Of a DNA stretch of 64,000 nucleotides, positions 51,632 to 62,589 are shown piece after piece (position 1 is the first letter of the stretch; each line of letters begins with the position of its first letter). This DNA is from Trueperaceae bacterium (GTDB lineage: Bacteria; Deinococcota; Deinococci; Deinococcales; Trueperaceae), in assembly GCA_040905465.1 (NCBI GenBank), contig JBBDRK010000049.1, positions 1 to 64,000 of the forward strand. The letters are read 5' to 3'. The notes beneath the pieces are model-generated. The model worked only from the letters and a program-made list of their open reading frames with translations, had not been told where the DNA came from and did no database searches. A program made the position numbers and the translations under genes.

Positions 51632-54600
51632 CTAGGGCCCGACGACCGACGCCTCAAGTCCGTCGCTCCCTACCCCCAACTCGACGGTGGTGCGTTGCCC
51701 TGCTGCCACCGCCACATCGGGCACTTCCAGGGCCGTGCCCGCAGCATGCACGATCGTCCTATAGGTCCCGGCGGGCAGCGCGACTCCTTCGTCGCCGAGA
51801 TGCCCCGAGGCCACCTCGCCCCCCGAGGCATCCAGCACCGTGAACGGCACGGCGAGCGACTGCTTTATCCCGTCCAGCAACTCGCCGGAGTCGGCCGCGT
51901 CGAAGTAGCGCCCGCCGCTGAGCTCGGCGACTTGCTCCATCTCCGCCTTGGCGGCCTCGTCGGCGAGATCGAAGCCGACGATGTTGATTCGCACATCCAG
52001 CCCCTGGTCCAACAGTTCCGTCACGGCCTCCGCCGGGCTGCCGCCGCACTCCTCGATACCGTCGGTAACCAACAGCACCAGCTTCTCGCCGGGCTCGTCC
52101 CCGAAGTCGCCCGCGACCTGCCGCAGGGAAAACGCGATGGGAGTAGTGCCGCGCGGCTGGATCCCCGCGACCAGCTGCAGCAATCGCGTCTTGTCCACGG
52201 GACCGAACGGGAACACCAACTCAGAATCCTGACAGGCGCCGGCCTCGCTGAAATGGACCCGGTGACCGTAGAGACGCATCGCCACTCGCACGTCTTCCGG
52301 CAGGTCGGCGATCACGCCGGCCATTACCTCCTTGGCGATCTCGATGCGCGAGCGGCCCTCGATCTGCGCCCACATCGAGTTCGAGCCGTCCAGGATCAGC
52401 GCTATCCGCGGTGGCGCCCCGAGAACGGCGTCGGCCTCTTCGTCGGCCGCGATCACCCGTAGCCTTCCCGGGCCACGGGCCACTTCACGCGCGCTGACTG
52501 TCAGGTCGTAGAGCACCGGGGACGATCCGGAATCGAGGCGCTCGAAGCGGACTTCGACGCGAAGATAACGTCCGGCCGGCAGGTCCAGACCCTCCCCACT
52601 GGCCACAGTCGCCGGCTCGCTGAAATCGGCGCCGTCGACGCTGCTCGCTGCAGTCACCGTTATCGACCCGCTGTCCTGGGGCTCCGCTTGCCAGCTGATC
52701 TCTTGCCAGCTAGTCCCCGGGGCGCCGCTATCGTGAACGACGGTCCACGTGCCGCTGTCGGGGACGGCGGCCAGGGTGCTGCCGGTCATGTCACTGTAGT
52801 TGTACGGCGTCGCGTCGGGTCCGAGGTCGACGATCAGGTCGACCGCGCCAAGCGGAAAACCGCCACCGGCGAGTGGGCCGGCCCGCGGGTCGATACGCAT
52901 GACATCGTCCGTATTTGCGTTCGTGACCCAGATCTTGTCGTTGGCATCCACCGCTACGCCGGTCGGCCCGCTACCGTCAAGCAGATCGACATTCCCGACG
53001 AAGGTGCCGTCCGTCCTGAGGCGTCCGACCGTTGGCGAGGCGCCGGCCAGATTGCCGTGCGCCACCCACACGTTGCCGTCACGGTCCACCGCTACGCCCT
53101 TGGCGAAAGCGTCTCCGTGCTCGAAGCAGCCGAGGAGCGCGCCGCTCGGAGCCAGCTTGCAGACCCCGTCCTGGACCTCCTTCGTGTGCCAGATCTCTCC
53201 TGTGACAGTGTCGATGCCGAGGCCGTAGTTCCCGACATCCAGACCAAGACACTCGCCGGACATGGTGGTCGTATCGAACCGCAACAACCCACCATAGCGG
53301 GCCGACCAGAGAACGCCGTTACTGTCGATGAGCCCGCCGTAACCACCGCATCCCAGGTTGAACTCGGTACCGACGACAGGCTCACCGGTGCTCCCGTCGA
53401 TCTTTCCATGTGCCCTGTCGTAGCCACCGGTCCAGAGGTCGTTGTTACCATCGACGGCCACCGTGCGCGTCGCGGTGCCCGCCACCCGCGTGTAGAGAAT
53501 GACGCATTCGTCCTCGGCGGTGGATTCGTCAACATCGTCATCGGCATCGGCGCCCTGGGGCCAGGGCAAAATGTCGCCGAGCCCGGTGGAGGTGTCGATC
53601 TCGCCGTTGCCGTTACGGTCCGCACACTGATTGTTCTCCAGCAGGCCGATCTTGACTACCGAGCCCTTGCCGTCCTCGTTCTCACCCCGGTTTCCCGCCC
53701 AGGCGTTGCCGTCGGCGTCCACGGTGGTCCGTGAAGTGTCCCGACCCCGACCGTCAGGCGCGGAGAGATACTCGCCCAGGATCTCGCCCGTCGTCGTATC
53801 GATCTTTATCACGGTGCCCCGCCTCGACGCCGCCACCCAAATGAAATTGAACGGAACCGGCTCGTCGACCAACTTCAGTTCGTCGCCGGCGGACGTGACG
53901 TTCACAGGCGTGCCACCGTCAAACTCTGCGGTAAGGGTGTAGGTTGCGGGTGTGCCGACAAGCGGCTGTGCTCGTATCACCCCAGCTGCAGCCATGCTCA
54001 TATCGACGCTGCTGACCCGTCCCTCGCCGACCTCTACCTCGGCCCAACGCACCTCCTTGGTGTCCTCGCCCCGTGGCAGCACGCTAGCCACGTGATAGGT
54101 CCCCGGTAGCAGAACCGTAAAACCCCAGCGATTCTCGGTCTCGGCCTGCAGCTCACCCTGGTGGTCGAACACGTACCAGACTTCCGGCGGTTCGTGGCCA
54201 GCCAGCGGCACCAGCTCGACGCCGGAGAGGACCTCGACACGGGTCACCTGCCCCTCGGAGACCTCGACCTCGGCCCACTCCACCTCCGCATCACCGGGCG
54301 TCACCGCGACCGTGTAGCGGCCCGGCGGCAAGACCACGAACTTCCACTCCCCCTTCCACTCACGCGCAACACGATCTCCGCTTGCCTCGTAGATGTACCA
54401 CTGGGGCGCCTCGTGGCCAGGCACGCCCACCAACTCGACGCCGGAGAGGACCTCGACACGGATCACCTGCCCCTCGGAGACCTCCACCTCCGCCCACTCC
54501 AGCTCGGTATCACCCGGCTTCACCGCGACCGTGTAGCGGCCGGGCGGCAAGGCCACGAACTTCCACTCCCCCTTCCACTCGCGCGCAACACGATCGCCGG

Positions 54601-55012
54601 CTTCGTCGTAGATGTACCACTCCGGCGCGTCGTGGCCCGGCACGCCGACCAGCTCGACGCCGGAGAGGACCTCGACACGGGTCACCTGCCCCTCGGAGAC
54701 CTCGACCTCCGCCCACTCCACCTCGGTATCACCGGGCTTCACCGCGACCGTGTAGCGGCCGGGCGGCAAGGTCACGAACTTCCACTCCCCCTTCCACTCT
54801 CGGGCTACGCGGTCGCCGGCTTCGTCGTAGATGAACCATTCGGACGCGTCGAAATCGGGAACGCCCACCAGCTCGATGCCGGTGCTGCCCTGCTCGCCGG
54901 CGCCATCTTGAGCAAGGCCCGACAAGCCGATGAAAACGGCGATCAAGAGTATTGATAGGACCCGGAAGCGACCGGTCGTGAAGTGGAGTTCGTTGCGGTT
55001 TCGTCGAAACAT
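51632..55012 (-). CDS. Large secreted protein: four tandem beta-rich repeats, a Vgb/NHL-like beta-propeller and a VWA domain
   Basis: GGAGGG RBS; signal peptide ending GLAQ; repeated VAVDxxGNxW blades; VWA motifs DGSNS, TP and VTDG. Confidence 0.8.
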   Translation of the reverse strand: MFRRNRNELHFTTGRFRVLSILLIAVFIGLSGLAQDGAGEQGSTGIELVGVPDFDASEWFIYDEAGDRVAREWKGEWKFVTLPPGRYTVAVKPGDTEVEWAEVEVSEGQVTRVEVLSGVELVGVPGHDAPEWYIYDEAGDRVAREWKGEWKFVALPPGRYTVAVKPGDTELEWAEVEVSEGQVIRVEVLSGVELVGVPGHEAPQWYIYEASGDRVAREWKGEWKFVVLPPGRYTVAVTPGDAEVEWAEVEVSEGQVTRVEVLSGVELVPLAGHEPPEVWYVFDHQGELQAETENRWGFTVLLPGTYHVASVLPRGEDTKEVRWAEVEVGEGRVSSVDMSMAAAGVIRAQPLVGTPATYTLTAEFDGGTPVNVTSAGDELKLVDEPVPFNFIWVAASRRGTVIKIDTTTGEILGEYLSAPDGRGRDTSRTTVDADGNAWAGNRGENEDGKGSVVKIGLLENNQCADRNGNGEIDTSTGLGDILPWPQGADADDDVDESTAEDECVILYTRVAGTATRTVAVDGNNDLWTGGYDRAHGKIDGSTGEPVVGTEFNLGCGGYGGLIDSNGVLWSARYGGLLRFDTTTMSGECLGLDVGNYGLGIDTVTGEIWHTKEVQDGVCKLAPSGALLGCFEHGDAFAKGVAVDRDGNVWVAHGNLAGASPTVGRLRTDGTFVGNVDLLDGSGPTGVAVDANDKIWVTNANTDDVMRIDPRAGPLAGGGFPLGAVDLIVDLGPDATPYNYSDMTGSTLAAVPDSGTWTVVHDSGAPGTSWQEISWQAEPQDSGSITVTAASSVDGADFSEPATVASGEGLDLPAGRYLRVEVRFERLDSGSSPVLYDLTVSAREVARGPGRLRVIAADEEADAVLGAPPRIALILDGSNSMWAQIEGRSRIEIAKEVMAGVIADLPEDVRVAMRLYGHRVHFSEAGACQDSELVFPFGPVDKTRLLQLVAGIQPRGTTPIAFSLRQVAGDFGDEPGEKLVLLVTDGIEECGGSPAEAVTELLDQGLDVRINIVGFDLADEAAKAEMEQVAELSGGRYFDAADSGELLDGIKQSLAVPFTVLDASGGEVASGHLGDEGVALPAGTYRTIVHAAGTALEVPDVAVAAGQRTTVELGVGSDGLEASVVGP
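54000..54881 (-). repeat. Intragenic tandem repeat, 219-bp (73-aa) unit, three near-identical copies plus one diverged
   Basis: GCCGGAGAGGACCTCGACAC recurs at 54221, 54440 and 54659. Confidence 0.9.
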
Positions 55013-55277: not shown

Positions 55278-57179
55278 CCCATCTCCGGGTCGGGAGTCGG
55301 GCAAGCGCTCGCCGCCGAGGCGTGGGAGCTGGCCATCGAGTGCCTCCGTCGGGGGGCCGACAGGGCGTTCCGCGAGGGCCACGGCGAGCGACTCCGCGAT
55401 TACCTCGCCCGGTTCCCAGCGGCTTATCAGGGGCGTCCGGAGCTGCTGCGCGTCGAGGGTTACCTGTCCTGGGCGGCCGGCGACCTCGAGGTGGCGCAGG
55501 TAAAAGCGTCGCAGGCCGCCGAGGTCGAGGACGCCAACCTGCGTGCCGACGCGCTCGTCCTGCTGGCGGCCGTCCACTACTCCCTGGGGAACTTCGCCAC
55601 TGAGCTGATCGCGCTACGGCAGGCCATCGACCTCGCTCCCAGCGATCACCATGTGCTGGCCAAGGCCTGGTTCGGTCTGGGCTCGCTTCACTACCGGGCA
55701 GGCAGGGTCGCCGAGGCCGAGCAAGCCCTGAAGTGCTCCGCGGCGCTCACGCACGAAGGCGAGCCGGTCCATGCCGCCGTGCTGAGCGTCCTCGCGCTGC
55801 TGCCCTTGGCCCGCGGGACGCCCCGGACCGCCATTGCCGGGCTGGCACGGGCGGTAGCTGGCAACCGCAGGGTCGGCAACCGGCGCGGTGAAGCCCACGC
55901 CTGCTACCACCTGGCGATCGCGCTCGATCAGGCGGGCATGCATCAGCAGGCGCTGGACGCCCTGGCCGAGGCGGAGCAACTGGCGCGCGAGTTGGGCCTC
56001 GCCCACCTGGCGGCCCTGGTGGCTCGCGAGATGGCCGATGCTCACCGCGACATAGGGAGCGGCGAGGCGCCCGAACGGTACCGGCAGGCCATAGCCGAGC
56101 TTGAGGCGATGGGCGCCTCGGCCGGCTTGCTGCATGCTTATCACGGTCTGGCGGTGCAGTTGCGGCGAGAGAACGACAAGGAGGCGGCCCGGCGAGCAGC
56201 CGAGAAGGCGCTCGAGCACTCCGAAAGCGGAGACCCGGCGTTCGTGGCGCTGGTCCGGCTTCACCTGGCGCTGCTCAGCGATGACCAGGCGGCGTTGCGA
56301 GCGTCGCTAGCCCAGGCGCTCAGCCACCCGCACCGGTACTACCGGGCGCTGGCGCTCTGCTACGCCGCTGCCGGCGATCCGGTCGCGGCCCGCCGGCATG
56401 CCAAGGAAGCGATGGCGCTGATCCAGGACGAGGGGTTCGAGCACCTTCTGCGTGAGGAGCAGACGCTGGCAGCGCCGTGGCTCGGCACCCCTTCGCAACG
56501 GCCGCCGCCGGCTCCCGATACTCGCCTGGAACGGCCGCCCCGCTTCAGGCTGTATCTGCTGGGTGACCTCACCCTCGAAGGCCCGGAGGGCAGCCGCTCG
56601 CGTGTCCGTCCCCAGGCGCTCAGGCTGCTGGCCTATCTGGCGATGCGGCGCGGCTCCACGGTGGACCCCGCGCAACTGATCGACGCACTATGGCCCGACC
56701 GCGGCAACGAGATGCGGCCCACCATGCAGACCCTGATCTGGTTGCTACGGCGCAAGCTGCACGAGCGCCTGGTAGTGACCCACACCAGCGGCTACGCGTT
56801 CGATCCTGACGCGCTGGTGTGGGTCGATGTCGAGGAGTTCAGCCGGAGCCTTCGCGGGGAACGGTTCGAGGAGTGCATCTCCCTCTACCGTGGCGAGCTT
56901 CTGCCGGGGATCGAGTGGGCCGATCTCGAGCGCCGACACCTGGAGAACCGGTTCCTGCACGCACTCGAGCGGCTCGCCGACGACCGTTGTGAGGCGGGCA
57001 GGAGCGACGAGGGGATCGAGCTGTACGAGCGCATCGTGGCTATCGACCCCCTGGCCGAGAACGCCAGCAGGAAGCTCGTCGCGTGCCACCAGAAGGCCGG
57101 CCGCCATGACGCCGCTCAGCGGTTTCGGCGCGAGTTCGCCCAGCGGCTCGAGCAGGAGCTGGGGCTCTCCGGCGACTGA
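55278..57179 (+). CDS. TPR + winged-HTH/BTAD transcriptional activator (MalT/SARP-like), start unclear
   Basis: LLAYLA, LIDALWP, WVDVEEF, LYRGELLPG and DPLAE BTAD motifs; frame open from 55278, first GTG at 55491. Confidence 0.75.
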   Translation, partial: PISGSGVGQALAAEAWELAIECLRRGADRAFREGHGERLRDYLARFPAAYQGRPELLRVEGYLSWAAGDLEVAQVKASQAAEVEDANLRADALVLLAAVHYSLGNFATELIALRQAIDLAPSDHHVLAKAWFGLGSLHYRAGRVAEAEQALKCSAALTHEGEPVHAAVLSVLALLPLARGTPRTAIAGLARAVAGNRRVGNRRGEAHACYHLAIALDQAGMHQQALDALAEAEQLARELGLAHLAALVAREMADAHRDIGSGEAPERYRQAIAELEAMGASAGLLHAYHGLAVQLRRENDKEAARRAAEKALEHSESGDPAFVALVRLHLALLSDDQAALRASLAQALSHPHRYYRALALCYAAAGDPVAARRHAKEAMALIQDEGFEHLLREEQTLAAPWLGTPSQRPPPAPDTRLERPPRFRLYLLGDLTLEGPEGSRSRVRPQALRLLAYLAMRRGSTVDPAQLIDALWPDRGNEMRPTMQTLIWLLRRKLHERLVVTHTSGYAFDPDALVWVDVEEFSRSLRGERFEECISLYRGELLPGIEWADLERRHLENRFLHALERLADDRCEAGRSDEGIELYERIVAIDPLAENASRKLVACHQKAGRHDAAQRFRREFAQRLEQELGLSGD

Positions 57180-57255: not shown

Positions 57256-57438
57256 ATGCGCCGTGAACGGGAGGTGCTGAGCCTGGCGTCGGAAGGGCTG
57301 ACGGTCTGCCAGATCAGCAAGCGGCTCGGAATCTGCTCGACGACGATAAACAAGCACGTGGCCAACATGCTCGGCAAGTCCGCGCTGCGCAACCGGGTAG
57401 AGATCGCGCGGTGGACATTCGGGCACGGCCAGCATTGA
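57256..57438 (+). pseudogene. Stand-alone or degraded LuxR-type HTH
   Basis: REREVLSLASEGLTVCQISKRLGICSTTINKHVANMLGKSALRNRVEIARW. Confidence 0.65.
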
Positions 57439-57515: not shown

Positions 57516-57545
57516 CGTGCTTCGACGTGCTTCGACGTGCTTCGA
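57516..57545. repeat. Micro tandem repeat (CGTGCTTCGA)x3
   Basis: Read directly from the sequence. Confidence 0.85.
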
Positions 57546-57795
57546 CCGGCGGTTCTAGCCCAGAGACGACGCATCCAGCCTGAACGGCCCCCGACACAAC
57601 TACCCCTCCGCCGCCACGCCCCGCTGTTGATCTCAGCGGAGGTGGCGCGCCTTTGAGCGTAGATTTGTCGGAAACCGTCCAATGGGCACCTCAATCTCGT
57701 CCAACAGCACCTCGCGCGTTTTCGAGACAACCCGGTGCAGGGAAGCCCAACAGTGCTTCGCTGGCCGCCCCATTATGCCTACCACTTGCATCCGC

Positions 57796-58054: not shown

Positions 58055-58555
58055 ATGAAACGGATTTTCGGACTGTTAGTTGCGCTCACGATGTTAATGG
58101 GAGCGAACGGAGTTCTTGCTCAAACAGGTAGCAGCGACGGACACGCCTTAAGTGTCGAGGTACAGGCCTTCGATTCGATAACTCTCGGTGGCACGCCTCC
58201 GTCATTTGTCATCACGGCCGAGGGAGAGGCTACCGACACTGGCAGCACAATAGCGTGGGCAACGAACGAGACAACCAGGACGATTACTGTTCAGAGTAGT
58301 CTGACTGCTGCCGCTATAGACTACGCTGTCACAGTGGAAGCAACCAACCCAGTGACGTCTGACGGTGCAACGCCGGGTACACCGGCAGGCGCGGTCACTA
58401 TCCCTGGGAGTGACGAATCAGCGGCCGCTTTCATCACGACAATCTCGCAATCGAGTGCTTCGGCGACTCTCGAATACGTAGTTGATATCAGTGTCACCGA
58501 CCCAACCGGTACTGATTCTCACACGATCACCTATACATTTACCGCCGACAGCTAG
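58055..58555 (+). CDS. Secreted Thr/Ala/Ser-rich beta protein, putative major fimbrial subunit
   Basis: Signal peptide ending VLAQ; 166 aa; terminal alternating strand HTITYTFT. Confidence 0.6.
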   Translation: MKRIFGLLVALTMLMGANGVLAQTGSSDGHALSVEVQAFDSITLGGTPPSFVITAEGEATDTGSTIAWATNETTRTITVQSSLTAAAIDYAVTVEATNPVTSDGATPGTPAGAVTIPGSDESAAAFITTISQSSASATLEYVVDISVTDPTGTDSHTITYTFTADS

Positions 58556-58561
58556 TCGGCC

Positions 58562-58599
58562 CATTGTCCGGAGTGATGTTGACATCACTCCGGACAATG
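58562..58599 (+). terminator. Perfect 18-bp stem-loop after the first subunit gene
   Basis: CATTGTCCGGAGTGATGT-TG-ACATCACTCCGGACAATG. Confidence 0.75.
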
Positions 58600-58619
58600 C
58601 CCCTTCCGTGGGGGCATGC

Positions 58620-59105
58620 ATGATTGAGAACGTATTTTGTGTGCTACTGATTTTCCTTCTAACACCCTTGGCCTCCGCGCAAACGCTCACCGCTACTGGC
58701 GACGCGTGGATCTTCGAGATTGGCGCAGACGATCTGGAGTCGCCGGGGGCGGGGCAGCCTCTTCGCAGCACATACGAGAGTTCGTCAACTGCCGTCGAGG
58801 TAGACGTAGAGGATGTAGCTGCAGAAGACTGGACGGTCGACGTTCGCCGCACCGACGACGAACTTACGCCATGGCCACAAGATCTCGAGTTGAGCGTGCG
58901 CTGGACCGATCAGGGGACCGGAACTGTAGCCCTTAGCGGCGGCTCCACCTACGTGGACATTCAGGAAGGCGGTGGCGTCTTCTTTTCGGGCACGGACAAC
59001 CGGACTGGCATTCAACTTCAGTACCAACTCTCGGGCGTGAGCCTGAGTACGCCGCCCGGAACCTACAACACCACCGTCTTGTTTACGGTCACACTTGATA
59101 ATTAG
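58620..59105 (+). CDS. Secreted beta protein, putative minor fimbrial subunit
   Basis: Signal peptide ending ASAQ; ends GTYNTTVLFTVT. Confidence 0.6.
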   Translation: MIENVFCVLLIFLLTPLASAQTLTATGDAWIFEIGADDLESPGAGQPLRSTYESSSTAVEVDVEDVAAEDWTVDVRRTDDELTPWPQDLELSVRWTDQGTGTVALSGGSTYVDIQEGGGVFFSGTDNRTGIQLQYQLSGVSLSTPPGTYNTTVLFTVTLDN

Positions 59106-59127
59106 GAAGGCAGTCGTAAGGACCAAC

Positions 59128-59916
59128 ATGAGGCTAGGCTCGATTCTGATACTGATTGTTGCTACCCTAACGGGGCATGCGCTCGCTGACATCTCCGTTA
59201 CCAGTAGTCTGTCGCAATTCCACGACGTGGTACCAGGCGAGGGCGTGGAAAACAGCATATCGATTCGAAACTCAGGATCGGCTGATGCGGTAATCAGGCT
59301 CTACCAAACCGACTACCTTTTCTTCGCTGACGGAAGATACAGCTACGGTGAGCCGGGCACCGTAAGTCGGTCCAATGCCGCTTGGATAACGCTTTCAACG
59401 CACGGTCTAACGATTCCCGCAGGAGAAACGGTCGCTGTTCCCTATGAAGTAAGGGTTCCAGATGACCAGAACCTGTTCGGATCGTACTGGAGTGCGATAA
59501 TGGTCGAGGAAGTTACCTCACCGACGCCGCAAGGCGAGGGTCCTGTAACAGTGCGTACAGTAGTTCGTTACGCGGTTCAAGTGGCAACTGAGTTCGGAGA
59601 AACCGGTGATAGTCTCCTCAACTTCACAAATCCCTCGTTACTAGACACAGAGGCTGGCGGTCAACTCCTCCAAGTAGATGCAGAAAACGTGGGAGAGCAA
59701 TCGATTCGCGCCTCCTTCTACGCGGAGCTTTACGATGATCAGGGTGCCTTGGTGGCTCGTATCGATGGCCGCCCGAGGAGGACCTATCCGGGTACCTCGA
59801 TCCGGCAACGCTTCGACCTAGGCCCACTGGTGGCGGGGAGGTACACCGCACTCGTTGTGGCAGATGGTGGCGGGGACGAGCTATTCGGGGCGCAATTCAC
59901 CCTGAATATCGAGTAG
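59128..59916 (+). CDS. Secreted two-Ig-domain chaperone-like protein (PapD/DUF916-like)
   Basis: Signal peptide; IRNSG, SNAAWI, TIPAGETVAV, GSYWSAIMVEE, VRYAVQV and ENVGE motifs. Confidence 0.6.
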   Translation: MRLGSILILIVATLTGHALADISVTSSLSQFHDVVPGEGVENSISIRNSGSADAVIRLYQTDYLFFADGRYSYGEPGTVSRSNAAWITLSTHGLTIPAGETVAVPYEVRVPDDQNLFGSYWSAIMVEEVTSPTPQGEGPVTVRTVVRYAVQVATEFGETGDSLLNFTNPSLLDTEAGGQLLQVDAENVGEQSIRASFYAELYDDQGALVARIDGRPRRTYPGTSIRQRFDLGPLVAGRYTALVVADGGGDELFGAQFTLNIE

Positions 59917-59937
59917 CACTAGAAGGATTCAAAGGAG

Positions 59938-62589
59938 ATGATGTCGTCCTTACGCCACCCTTTAGTGTTACTGATGCTTCTCGTTGGGTTGGCGTTTGCT
60001 CAATCGCCACAACTCGTCGCGCACGAGATGGCTTTCGTGACCGAACCCCGACAGACCGTCACTATGGCGTTCCAAGTATCAAACGAGTCGCCGGTTGAGT
60101 GGCGCGGCGCTCCAGAGCTCACTCTCCCTCCCGGTTGGCGGATACTGGTTCCTCCGACTGAACTTACTCTTCAAGCTAACGAGGTCCGAACGGTGCTTCT
60201 TCCCGTGGTCGTCCCAGCTACGGCGGCCGCAGGCAGGCACTCTCTGGAAGTCGCCTACCGGACGTTCGAACCCGATTTGGGGAAAAGCGAGCCCTTGCGG
60301 TTCAGTGTAGAGGTTCTCCAAGTCCACAAGCTCGATGTTCAGCTTTTCAGTGCACCACACTTGGTAGTGGCGGAACCATACACGCTTCACTTTCGGGTCC
60401 ATAACGCCGGGAATGTCGATGAACTGGTAGAGCTCCAGGCGAGCGGCAATCATGGCTTTCCTCTTGAGTTAACGCCGAGCACGCTCACGCTTCCCCCCGG
60501 AACCACCCAGGAAGCAACAGTTCTCGTTCTGCCACCCGCGGATCTGAACCGGCCGGTACGACACCACGTGACACTCGCTGCAGAGACGCAGCAAGCGCGA
60601 GCGACGGCGAGCTCGACTGTAGAGATCCTGGCGCTGCAGCAGGATGCCAGCCAAGGTTTCCACACTTACGAGCTGGAGATTGCAATACGCGGCCGGGTGG
60701 ACACACGTCACCTACCAGCGAGCGCGCTAGACGGCCTTGGCGGCGTCGAAATGGAAGTGCAGGGGCGCGGAGCGCTGTGGGATGGCGATCCAGGAGAGTT
60801 GCTAATTGCGCTCAAGAACTCCGCCGACCTCTCCCAGCGCCGCAACCAGGTCAGTTACCGCCACCCCGACTTCTCACTGAGTGCCGGGGATCAGAGCATC
60901 AAACTCGGCTCGCTTCTGCCGTCGATACGGGGGTTCGGCTTGGCTGGCGCAGTTCATCCCCAGGACTCGATTGTAGGCGTTCGAGGCTTTGGTGCGCTCG
61001 ATGACGGTGAACTTACGTACGGAGCGGGTTTGAATGTCGAGCCGGTACCCGACTTTGTCATCGAAGGTCAAGTTGTATACGCTGATGGTTCCGCTGTCGT
61101 CGCAGTCGAGTCCAACGTTAGTACACGACTTCGCGACGGCGGACTGGGCATCTTGGCGGTGCAGCCCGCCGTCAACTTGGCCACTTTGGCCTCGGGAGTC
61201 TACGCAGCGACGCGTGCCGTGGGAAACGATTACAACTTGCGCGGATACTTCCGCTACGAAGCGCCGGACTTCGAGGAGGGTGACCAGGCGCAAGCCAGCT
61301 ACGGCGTGAGCGGGCGGTTGCGTTCTATGCAACAAGCGGACGTGTGGCTCAGCGGTTCGTATAGTCAGCTTGATATGGCGCCGGCCAAACGAGTCCAGGC
61401 GTACAGCGGTGGACTTGACGGATTAGTTGAAGGCGTGCACTGGTCCGTACGGTACAACCACGCTCGGAAGTGGGACACGGCCGAGAACTCGCACGAGTTT
61501 GGGGTGCGGGCAACTGCCACGGTGCCACTGGCGGAAGATGCGACGCTGCGAACCGTCGGTTGGTGGGAGGAAGAGCAAGATCTTCTCACTGGCATCAACA
61601 GTCGAATCGTTGGAGTCGATGTCACCGGTTACTTCCCGTTGATGTCCGGTCGCTTTAAGGCCGGAGTGGAAGCAGAGTTCGACATGTTTGGTGTCAAAGC
61701 GACACAGCTGGGTGCATTGCTGGGCTGGGATGGAGCCGTAACCGATTACACCCGGCTCGGTATGGACGCCCAGGTGATCGTTGGAGACAAGAATCGAGTG
61801 GATCTGTCAGTTGGCGGTAGCCACGACCTAGCCGATGGCTCCACGTTCGCCGCGACTGTCTCTGGCTCAATACCCTGGAATGGGGCATCTCGTGTAAAAG
61901 GCCAAGTGGGAGTCACGGTGCCTGTGAGCCTCGTGATCGGCCGCAAGAAGGATGTTGCCGAAGTTAGCGGCCGAATCGTAGACGGTAGGGGAGTAGGGGT
62001 CCAAGGAGTCGTCGTCTGGCTGGCGGGCTTCACGGACGTGACTGCCGAGGACGGCACATTCATATTCCCTGCAGCGCCGTTGGGTACGCACGCCATTACG
62101 CTGCGCGGCATGAAACCTGGCTACGTTACGCTTCCCGCACTGCCCCTGAAACTCGAAATCGTGGAAGGAGATAACGCGGAAGTCGAGTTCGAATTGTTCC
62201 GGGCTGGCGTTCTGCAAGGGCGAGTTGAGCTGCAAGTGCCCGAATCGGCCGGTTCGGCACCAGGATCAGGCGTGGTCGTGGGTGCAGGAGGACCTGTCGA
62301 CCCCGGGAGGCTGTTGGGAGGCATTACCCTGGTTGTGACCGGGCCCGGAGTAGACCAAAGGGTAGCGGTAAACGGCGATGGCACCTTCCGACTCACTCAC
62401 CTTTCGCCTGGCGAGTGGCAGGTGCGGGCCATGTCACAGAGCCTGCCTGAGTACTACAGGCTCGAAACCATGAGCCAAACTGTGACCCTTCGCGAGGGCG
62501 GCGAAGCGAGTGTCTCGTTCAGCTTGATTCCGGTTCAGAGGAGGATCAGATTTACCGGGGGCGGCGTACTAGGTAACGGAACTAAATAG
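59938..62589 (+). CDS. Large exported protein with N-terminal Ig-like domains, a predicted beta-barrel and C-terminal carboxypeptidase-regulatory-like domains (usher-like)
   Basis: Signal peptide ending AFAQ; LPPGW and HNAGNVDE repeats; long amphipathic beta region; SGRIVDGRG...DGTFIF and GDGTFRL...PGEW domains. Confidence 0.6.
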   Translation: MMSSLRHPLVLLMLLVGLAFAQSPQLVAHEMAFVTEPRQTVTMAFQVSNESPVEWRGAPELTLPPGWRILVPPTELTLQANEVRTVLLPVVVPATAAAGRHSLEVAYRTFEPDLGKSEPLRFSVEVLQVHKLDVQLFSAPHLVVAEPYTLHFRVHNAGNVDELVELQASGNHGFPLELTPSTLTLPPGTTQEATVLVLPPADLNRPVRHHVTLAAETQQARATASSTVEILALQQDASQGFHTYELEIAIRGRVDTRHLPASALDGLGGVEMEVQGRGALWDGDPGELLIALKNSADLSQRRNQVSYRHPDFSLSAGDQSIKLGSLLPSIRGFGLAGAVHPQDSIVGVRGFGALDDGELTYGAGLNVEPVPDFVIEGQVVYADGSAVVAVESNVSTRLRDGGLGILAVQPAVNLATLASGVYAATRAVGNDYNLRGYFRYEAPDFEEGDQAQASYGVSGRLRSMQQADVWLSGSYSQLDMAPAKRVQAYSGGLDGLVEGVHWSVRYNHARKWDTAENSHEFGVRATATVPLAEDATLRTVGWWEEEQDLLTGINSRIVGVDVTGYFPLMSGRFKAGVEAEFDMFGVKATQLGALLGWDGAVTDYTRLGMDAQVIVGDKNRVDLSVGGSHDLADGSTFAATVSGSIPWNGASRVKGQVGVTVPVSLVIGRKKDVAEVSGRIVDGRGVGVQGVVVWLAGFTDVTAEDGTFIFPAAPLGTHAITLRGMKPGYVTLPALPLKLEIVEGDNAEVEFELFRAGVLQGRVELQVPESAGSAPGSGVVVGAGGPVDPGRLLGGITLVVTGPGVDQRVAVNGDGTFRLTHLSPGEWQVRAMSQSLPEYYRLETMSQTVTLREGGEASVSFSLIPVQRRIRFTGGGVLGNGTK

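Follow-up and report, generated by a model that had tools for sequence, protein, structure and literature searches.

A conserved four-gene cassette in a Trueperaceae bacterium predicted to encode a divergent chaperone-usher-type pilus pathway

We examined 64,000 nucleotides (nt) of DNA from a Trueperaceae bacterium (Deinococcota; GenBank assembly GCA_040905465.1, contig JBBDRK010000049.1, positions 1 to 64,000, forward strand). This stretch, hereafter called the window, carries four genes, A to D, that are predicted to specify two pilin-like subunits, a periplasmic chaperone, and an outer-membrane pore (Table 1). The four open reading frames (ORFs) lie on the plus strand, with gaps of 64 nt between A and B, 22 nt between B and C, and 21 nt between C and D. 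Each product begins, as judged by eye, with a hydrophobic stretch and an AxA-type site, in agreement with an initial annotation of the window that described four co-oriented genes with Sec-type signal peptides. The motifs singled out there, TITYTFT, GTYNTTVLFTVT, and GSYWSAIMVE, are all present. That annotation also described two Cys-free mature subunits of ~160 amino acids (aa); A and B do lack cysteine, but ~160 aa is the length of the precursors, and the mature proteins have ~144 aa (A) and ~141 aa (B). As it had further noted, there is no LPxTG motif and no C-terminal membrane anchor: mature A-D contain no Cys, LPxTG, WxL motif, or transmembrane helix (maximum 19-residue hydropathy 1.5). 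Residues of A, C, and D are numbered on the mature chains throughout.

Scans of Pfam and NCBIfam returned zero matches for A and B, immunoglobulin (Ig) matches below threshold for C, and generic Ig and CarboxypepD_reg domains for D. None of the four proteins reached a hidden Markov model of a fimbrial family in these databases; a strong match of that kind would have spoken against the initial interpretation. When the sequences of solved structures were searched, D retrieved generic domains only, and neither C alone nor a profile of A matched anything. Atlas feature matches were mostly to unnamed clusters.

Table 1. Features of the cassette and related sequences in the same genome (window positions unless prefixed; residues in mature numbering except for the signal peptide)
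Feature	Position	Strand	Description
Gene A	58055-58555	+	166 aa precursor; major pilin-like subunit; signal peptide ~1-22; incomplete Ig-like fold with N-terminal extension (model)
Gene B	58620-59105	+	161 aa; pilin-like, without donor strand; predicted tip or initiator subunit
Gene C	59128-59916	+	262 aa; predicted soluble two-domain periplasmic chaperone
Gene D	59938-62589	+	883 aa; predicted usher-like outer-membrane protein
Predicted donor strand of A	58121-58168	+	residues 1-16; inward-facing H8, L10, V12, V14
C-terminal strand of A, acceptor-groove edge	58520-58546	+	residues 134-142; T139 invariant in 117 rows
Predicted chaperone donor (G1-like) strand of C	59539-59574	+	residues 118-129; R127 99% and Y128 87% conserved
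N-terminal pair of D	60001-60630	+	residues 1-210; duplicated PapD-like Ig domains
Barrel region of D	60658-61944	+	residues 220-648; 26 consecutive amphipathic strands, no plug insertion
C-terminal pair of D	61954-62532	+	residues 652-844; prealbumin-like (CarboxypepD_reg, PF13620); equivalent to usher CTD1 and CTD2
Two more complete cassettes, same genome	C49:181909-186182; C32:27875-33559	-; -	subunit-C-D, and D-C-two subunits, in gene order
C-terminal fragment of D at contig edge, same genome	C50:153-782	+	

The model of subunit A (predicted local distance difference test, pLDDT, 91.5; 117 aligned rows) contains seven strand segments from residue 18 on, while residues 1-17 have no strand pairing. 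This free N-terminal segment keeps an alternating pattern, x-V-T-(F/V/I)-x-V, across the family. As modeled, A is therefore a pilin fold, an incomplete Ig domain with a free N-terminal donor strand, which is what the initial annotation had anticipated. In Foldseek, the first rows were CfaB, cannulae, TLP-1a, TasA, and Caf1, every one with an expectation value (E) of at least 0.012. In VIA, cannula subunits scored highest (Z 8.0-8.4; CanA 8.3-8.4, with Hyper2 tubes also matched), together with TLP-1b (Z 8.0, root-mean-square deviation (rmsd) 3.6, 135 aligned), followed by the CFA/I tip complex (Z 7.2), CfaB (6.8), and FimA (6.5). The leading matches are thus mostly donor-strand filament subunits, with middling scores.

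The C family profile matched one solved protein clearly, the chaperone EfmWxLIP1 (9i25, 9i1y), at E 1e-5 (9i25, 1.2e-5) over profile positions 94-260; the next match had E 0.16. The family PF06030 matches 19 of 121 rows of the C alignment (25 of 32 families listed) and 11 of 31 Deinococcota homologues, two of them above the cut-off, with C itself unmatched. PapD_N is not among the Pfam matches listed for C and its homologues. With hhalign, C aligned to the chaperones of archaic chaperone-usher operons in Deinococcota (probability (P) 93%, E 3e-7, 173 columns); for mature regions P was 75%, against 0.4% for the reversed control. By these profile comparisons, C is detectably related both to archaic chaperones and to the WxLIP/DUF916 proteins.

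A chaperone-subunit complex, as expected from the initial annotation, was predicted for C and A with a score of 0.88, compared to 0.00 for the best of three controls. The mark used for this score is reached by 116 of 157 solved pairs and by 2 of 215 mismatched pairs. Three runs shared at least 90% of contacts, with partner pLDDT of at least 80. In the predicted complex, C118-129 pairs with A134-141 in parallel register (C122/A134, C124/A136, C126/A138, and C128/A140), the highly conserved R127 of C touches A137-140, and residues 1-14 of A are not named in the interface. The modeled geometry is that of donor-strand complementation, with the N-terminal strand of A left free. In domain 2 of C, R174 (72% conserved) is part of the predicted interface and Y200 (79% conserved) is not named there. 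The N terminus of C has no highly conserved Arg within residues 1-12 (position 12 is R in 40% of rows), and the strand consensus GTYWSxxMVE has no Arg at strand F of domain 1, where Arg89 of EcpB aligns with Ser102 of C in a weak alignment (E 0.07).

D models as a membrane barrel (pLDDT 92.6, predicted template-modeling (TM) score 0.72; 95 rows). Each barrel strand shows one apolar face family-wide, and the closure of the barrel is taken from its alignments to MtrB and FimD. Of the usher-like barrel with plug proposed at first, the barrel stands and the plug does not: the longest loop in the model is ~14 aa, and hhalign gave no match between D and the plug region of archaic ushers. Across the 95 rows the barrel region spans 361-497 aa, with a 60-aa insertion in a single row; the shortest family members may have fewer strands. 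The two N-terminal domains match each other (hhalign P 97%) as well as the first domain of C (P 90% and 96%), a likeness that may in part be generic PapD-like fold similarity. An usher-type N-domain was not detected, either as a Pfam match or by hhalign against archaic ushers (P 0.1%). PF00577, the usher Pfam family, matches neither D nor any of 18 Deinococcota homologues nor any protein of the source genome; of 41 homologues, it reaches 2, with E 0.01 at best.

Fold and profile comparisons bear differently on the origin of D. Foldseek ranks 1-11 were all FimD or PapC (E 4e-15 to 3e-11, TM-scores 0.24-0.33). In VIA the best match was MtrB (Z 18.2, rmsd 5.4, 393 aligned over residues 220-642), whose barrel we take to have 26 strands; FimD scored Z 15.8-17.0, level with small porins, and the alignments to FimD (9fxs, 3rfz) reach the FimD C terminus. 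Since MtrB comes first and FimD sits among small porins, the fold search alone fails to single out ushers. Profile comparison does so, aligning D to ten archaic ushers in one continuous stretch of 344 columns (P 97%, E 3e-11). Taken separately, the barrel matched the usher barrels of Deinococcota archaic operons (P 91%, E 1e-6; 2.6% for BamA and 4.4% for a reversed usher), and the C-domains matched archaic usher C-domains (P 90%, 0.6% reversed). By these alignments, D is most likely a remote homologue of archaic ushers.

Possibly, D is instead an unrelated large porin, MtrB- or LptD-like, that was recruited to a WxL-like chaperone-pilin module and resembles ushers by convergence. The MtrB match across the whole barrel would fit such an origin, as would a strand number unlike that of ushers, the missing plug, and the different N terminus, and beta-hairpin repeats can align non-specifically. 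We nevertheless consider convergence unlikely, because the usher alignment is long and unbroken and because barrel and C-domains align to archaic ushers far above the BamA and reversed controls, a control set that held no MtrB or LptD profile. A convergent origin is compatible with the same mechanism; only the ancestry of D would change.

Two variations were seen among D homologues. Some, at loci L068, L085, L096, L104, L109, and L120, are ~1,200 aa long with an additional N-terminal Ig pair, and 4 of 41 carry SPOR domains.

We surveyed the gene neighborhood in 136 loci, comprising 56 loci with C found in GTDB genomes and the best 80 of 514 further loci recovered from metagenomes with the C profile. 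Among loci with room downstream, the gene directly after C was D in 53 of 54 cases from GTDB and 61 of 63 from metagenomes; among those with room upstream, C was preceded by a subunit gene in 44 of 45 and 63 of 64 cases, respectively. The A/B-C-D block is a conserved cassette, not a chance arrangement, and the conservation across phyla predicted from the initial annotation is borne out. Titles of the GTDB loci include Desulfobacterales and other Deltaproteobacteria, Gemmatimonadota, Bacteroidota, Ignavibacteria, Zixiibacteriota, Verrucomicrobiota, Elusimicrobia, Deferribacteres, Alpha- and Gammaproteobacteria, and Trueperaceae. In Deinococcota, 132 of 301 genomes have a match to the C profile and 11 to PF00577. 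Of 40 Deinococcota loci, which were chosen by hand and include two from the source genome, 36 carry a D-like ORF with a length of 750 aa or more. The C profile matched 3,042 cluster representatives at E ≤1e-10 and 817 at 1e-30; a direct homologue search with D gave at least three proteins.

RpoB of the source genome scores 1658 bits against its best entry (1iw7, a Thermus protein) and no more than 1261 bits beyond the five top entries, which identifies the host as a member of Deinococcota. The cassette hosts have outer membranes. Occurrence in monoderm Clostridia was considered and is unsupported, as Omp85/BamA is present in all four genomes titled "Clostridia" that hold cassette loci; a fifth, unclassified genome gave no match. 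A cultured host exists: Deinococcus deserti VCD115 bears the cassette on a plasmid (locus L239:3908-8295). In the public annotation its three genes are labeled "hypothetical", "FimB/Mfa2 family fimbrial subunit", and "carboxypeptidase regulatory-like domain-containing protein"; the FimB/Mfa2 label of the chaperone probably stems from a marginal Pfam match. The frame of the gene after D in this strain is longer than annotated, and its product looks like a subunit that lacks the donor strand.

The survey also separated two kinds of subunit. The gene directly upstream of C lacked the N-terminal extension in 104 of 117 cases (71 B-type and 33 short A-type; 12 were scored long and one was left unassigned), whereas 163 of the 177 remaining subunit genes kept it. 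B matched the A profile end to end from A position 20 (20-141), at E 0.014 and P 3% (reversed control, E 0.18). As a subunit able to accept but unable to donate a strand would end the chain at its distal tip, B is likely to be the tip or initiator subunit. A carries both donor strand and groove and could in principle chain without limit. WxL families were absent from the Pfam matches of the 117 A rows and of 18 further candidate subunits.

Subunit number varies among loci: some have 5-14 subunit paralogues, and in many others just one or two subunit genes were detected. Loci of the latter kind, together with the lack of an adhesin or terminator gene in the cassette, could point to a product other than a long pilus, namely a short oligomer, at the surface or in the periplasm, that D displays. 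With unlimited chaining of A allowed in principle and as many as 14 paralogues at a locus, we regard a short oligomer as highly improbable. At the locus with 14 subunit genes (L009:1567-13074), these genes surround C and D, two being in inverted orientation, and the end of another D gene is also present; subunit diversification is possible there. Divergent Deinococcota loci (L193, L194, L197, L201, and L206) have larger candidate subunits of 245-280 aa with no Pfam match. These are near TLP-1 in size, and one, searched against solved sequences, had no TLP-1 match.

Together, these findings make us fairly confident that the cassette encodes a divergent chaperone-usher-type pilus pathway, the mechanism of which is predicted at every step. 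Signal peptides, amphipathic strands, and a BamA encoded in the same genome suggest that A-D would cross the inner membrane via Sec and that D would enter the outer membrane. C would then capture each subunit and complete its Ig fold with residues 118-129, placed parallel to the last strand of the subunit, leaving the N-terminal strand free, as modeled for A only. By analogy with ushers, C-subunit complexes may dock on the periplasmic Ig domains of D. That subunits divide so consistently into those with a donor strand and those lacking one suggests a tip-first order, in which B, with a groove and no donor strand, would enter first and cap the tip, A would displace C by donor-strand exchange, and the fiber would grow through the 26-strand pore. 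Since the barrel has no plug, the resting pore must close some other way; we speculate that, most likely, either one N-terminal PapD-like domain or a parked subunit would shut it. A two-domain adhesin is missing from the cassette, so a thin fiber for attachment or biofilm formation is the likely product. Of the fiber or surface lattice suggested at first, the fiber is the better supported.

A different route would have D serve only as an exit pore, with subunits leaving singly and self-assembling outside, as for TasA or cannulae, into a matrix, tube, or lattice, and with C preventing premature assembly. The best VIA matches of A (CanA, Hyper2 tubes, and TLP-1b) are in keeping with such assembly, and so is a D without a plug or detected usher-type N-domain. 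We think it quite improbable, however. D has retained usher-like C-terminal domains, a folded subunit held by a parallel chaperone strand is the starting state of chaperone-usher assembly, and the conservation of a subunit lacking the donor strand implies assembly in a set order, tip first.

Several points weigh against the proposed chaperone-usher-type pathway. Its support is wholly computational, and the fiber itself is a prediction. The surveyed loci are relatives of one another, so their counts are not independent events. The fold matches of A are middling (VIA Z ≤8.4; Foldseek E ≥0.012), and those with the top Z-scores are chaperone-free archaeal cannulae and TLP-1, not chaperone-usher pilins. 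The link between B and A is weak at the P given above. The C-A score may partly reflect likeness to solved chaperone-pilin complexes. Finally, the best match of D by Z-score is MtrB, and its TM-scores to ushers are low.

Base composition sets the cassette apart from its surroundings. G+C content (GC) across 58055-62589 is 0.55-0.60 compared to 0.65 for the genome, and third-position GC is 0.55-0.65 compared to 0.85 in the upstream gene, hinting at recent acquisition. The closest matches of C fall outside Deinococcota. In a midpoint-rooted FastTree phylogeny (94 rows; locus L056, one duplicate row, and matches <200 aa omitted), C lies between the Deinococcota and the outside group, beside a long branch. 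Promoter and terminator scans were at chance level, and no RNA holder was among the matches listed.

Upstream of A, the intergenic region contains a 10-base unit in three tandem copies (57517-57546). It is preceded by a gene for a TPR and BTAD (SARP-like) regulator (55491-57179, plus strand) and a short ORF that by eye resembles a LuxR-type helix-turn-helix protein (~57256-57438, plus strand). As the TPR/BTAD regulator had only one homologue among the related loci searched, we left it out of the system. Farther upstream, on the minus strand (51632-55009), lies a gene for a large secreted-looking protein with tandem ~68-aa repeats, an NHL/Vgb propeller, and a vWA domain. It could be an unlinked adhesin; there is no evidence tying it to the cassette.

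Our broadest suggestion is a tentative one: that the cassette represents a separate, very widespread, and old chaperone-usher branch linking Gram-negative pili to Gram-positive WxL pili. Such a branch would have a WxLIP-type chaperone free in the periplasm and a 26-strand, plug-less usher whose gating and recruiting are done with duplicated chaperone-like domains. Current annotation would not see this branch, which might supply Deinococcota and many environmental phyla with their main donor-strand pilus and might include orphan fibers such as TLP-1. Chaperone-usher surveys miss the system because they rely on the usher Pfam family. A plug-less usher makes it possible to test how a large pilus pore stays shut and whether a plug is needed for subunit recruitment, and the cultured D. 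deserti offers a host. That C has ties to archaic chaperones as well as to WxLIP is relevant to where the WxL pilus came from; the cited parts of a recent preprint describe this pilus as Bacillota-only, with chaperones disjoint from those of chaperone-usher systems at E 1e-20 (10.64898/2026.10.17.759780). That cut is stricter than the profile links of C used here. No description of the cassette system was found in the literature searched, a search outside of which most subscription papers fall.

How, then, does the cassette compare with known systems, as these are described in the sections of the papers cited? With the archaic and alternate chaperone-usher pili (Csu, CupE, ECP, and CFA/I) it has in common the gene set and order, a two-domain periplasmic chaperone, and an usher barrel with C-domains. 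The Tyr at the end of the donor strand of C and the Arg and Tyr of its domain 2 recall Y116, R174, and Y196 of CsuC, whereas the hallmark strand-F Arg89 of the archaic and alternate chaperones (CsuC, EcpB, and CfaA) is absent from C (PMC4654587). The cassette further differs in that D has 26 strands, a tandem pair of PapD-like N-domains, and neither a plug nor a PF00577 match, in that A and B are Cys-free, and in that a two-domain tip adhesin is missing.

Archaic pili have been reported in Deinococcota (PMC10104325), and we considered whether the cassette is that system. We rejected this identity, since the PF00577 loci are separate operons with Cys-bearing pilins, all within one family (Deinococcaceae), with none in the source genome. 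E. coli ECP was likewise rejected as the closest relative: A gave nothing with EcpA, C reached E 0.07 with EcpB, and D aligned with EcpC over only 41 C-domain columns, although these comparisons are weak tests because single sequences were used. With the classical systems (FimD/FimC and PapC/PapD), the cassette shares the top Foldseek matches of D and, in the C-A model, parallel donor-strand complementation. Known ushers, the classical ones included, are described as having 24 strands and an internal plug (PMC13721041, PMC3960871), in contrast to the 26 strands and plug-less barrel of D.

The WxL/Elr pilus of Bacillota (ElrE/WxLIP, DUF916 plus DUF3324) provides the nearest solved sequence relative of C, EfmWxLIP1. 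According to the cited parts of the preprint (10.64898/2026.10.17.759780), it uses a complementation-then-exchange logic like that proposed for the cassette, and the modeled C-A geometry matches that described for ElrE-ElrD and chaperone-usher complexes. A C-terminal membrane anchor is given there for 96.7% of WxL chaperones, whereas a C-terminal hydrophobic helix occurs in 0 of 120 members of the C family. The cassette also has no WxL domain and no LPxTG, has an outer-membrane barrel in place of sortase anchoring, and occurs in outer-membrane bacteria, while WxL systems are reported only from Bacillota.

Among chaperone-free or orphan donor-strand filaments (CanA cannulae, TasA, and TLP-1a/b), cannulae and TLP-1 are the best structural matches of A (Z 7.8-8.4). 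No sequence match to these was found with the A profile, and, in contrast to them, A-family subunits come with a chaperone and a pore of their own. TLP-1 subunits have ~236 aa, and the cited text gives their genes as unknown (PMC11494351).

The initial view that the system fits neither the chaperone-usher nor the WxL type thus holds for family membership and fails for ancestry, with C tied to WxLIP and archaic chaperones and D to archaic ushers. While the cassette stands apart in usher family, strand number, plug, N-domain, and WxL domain, it shares ancestry and working logic with chaperone-usher systems.

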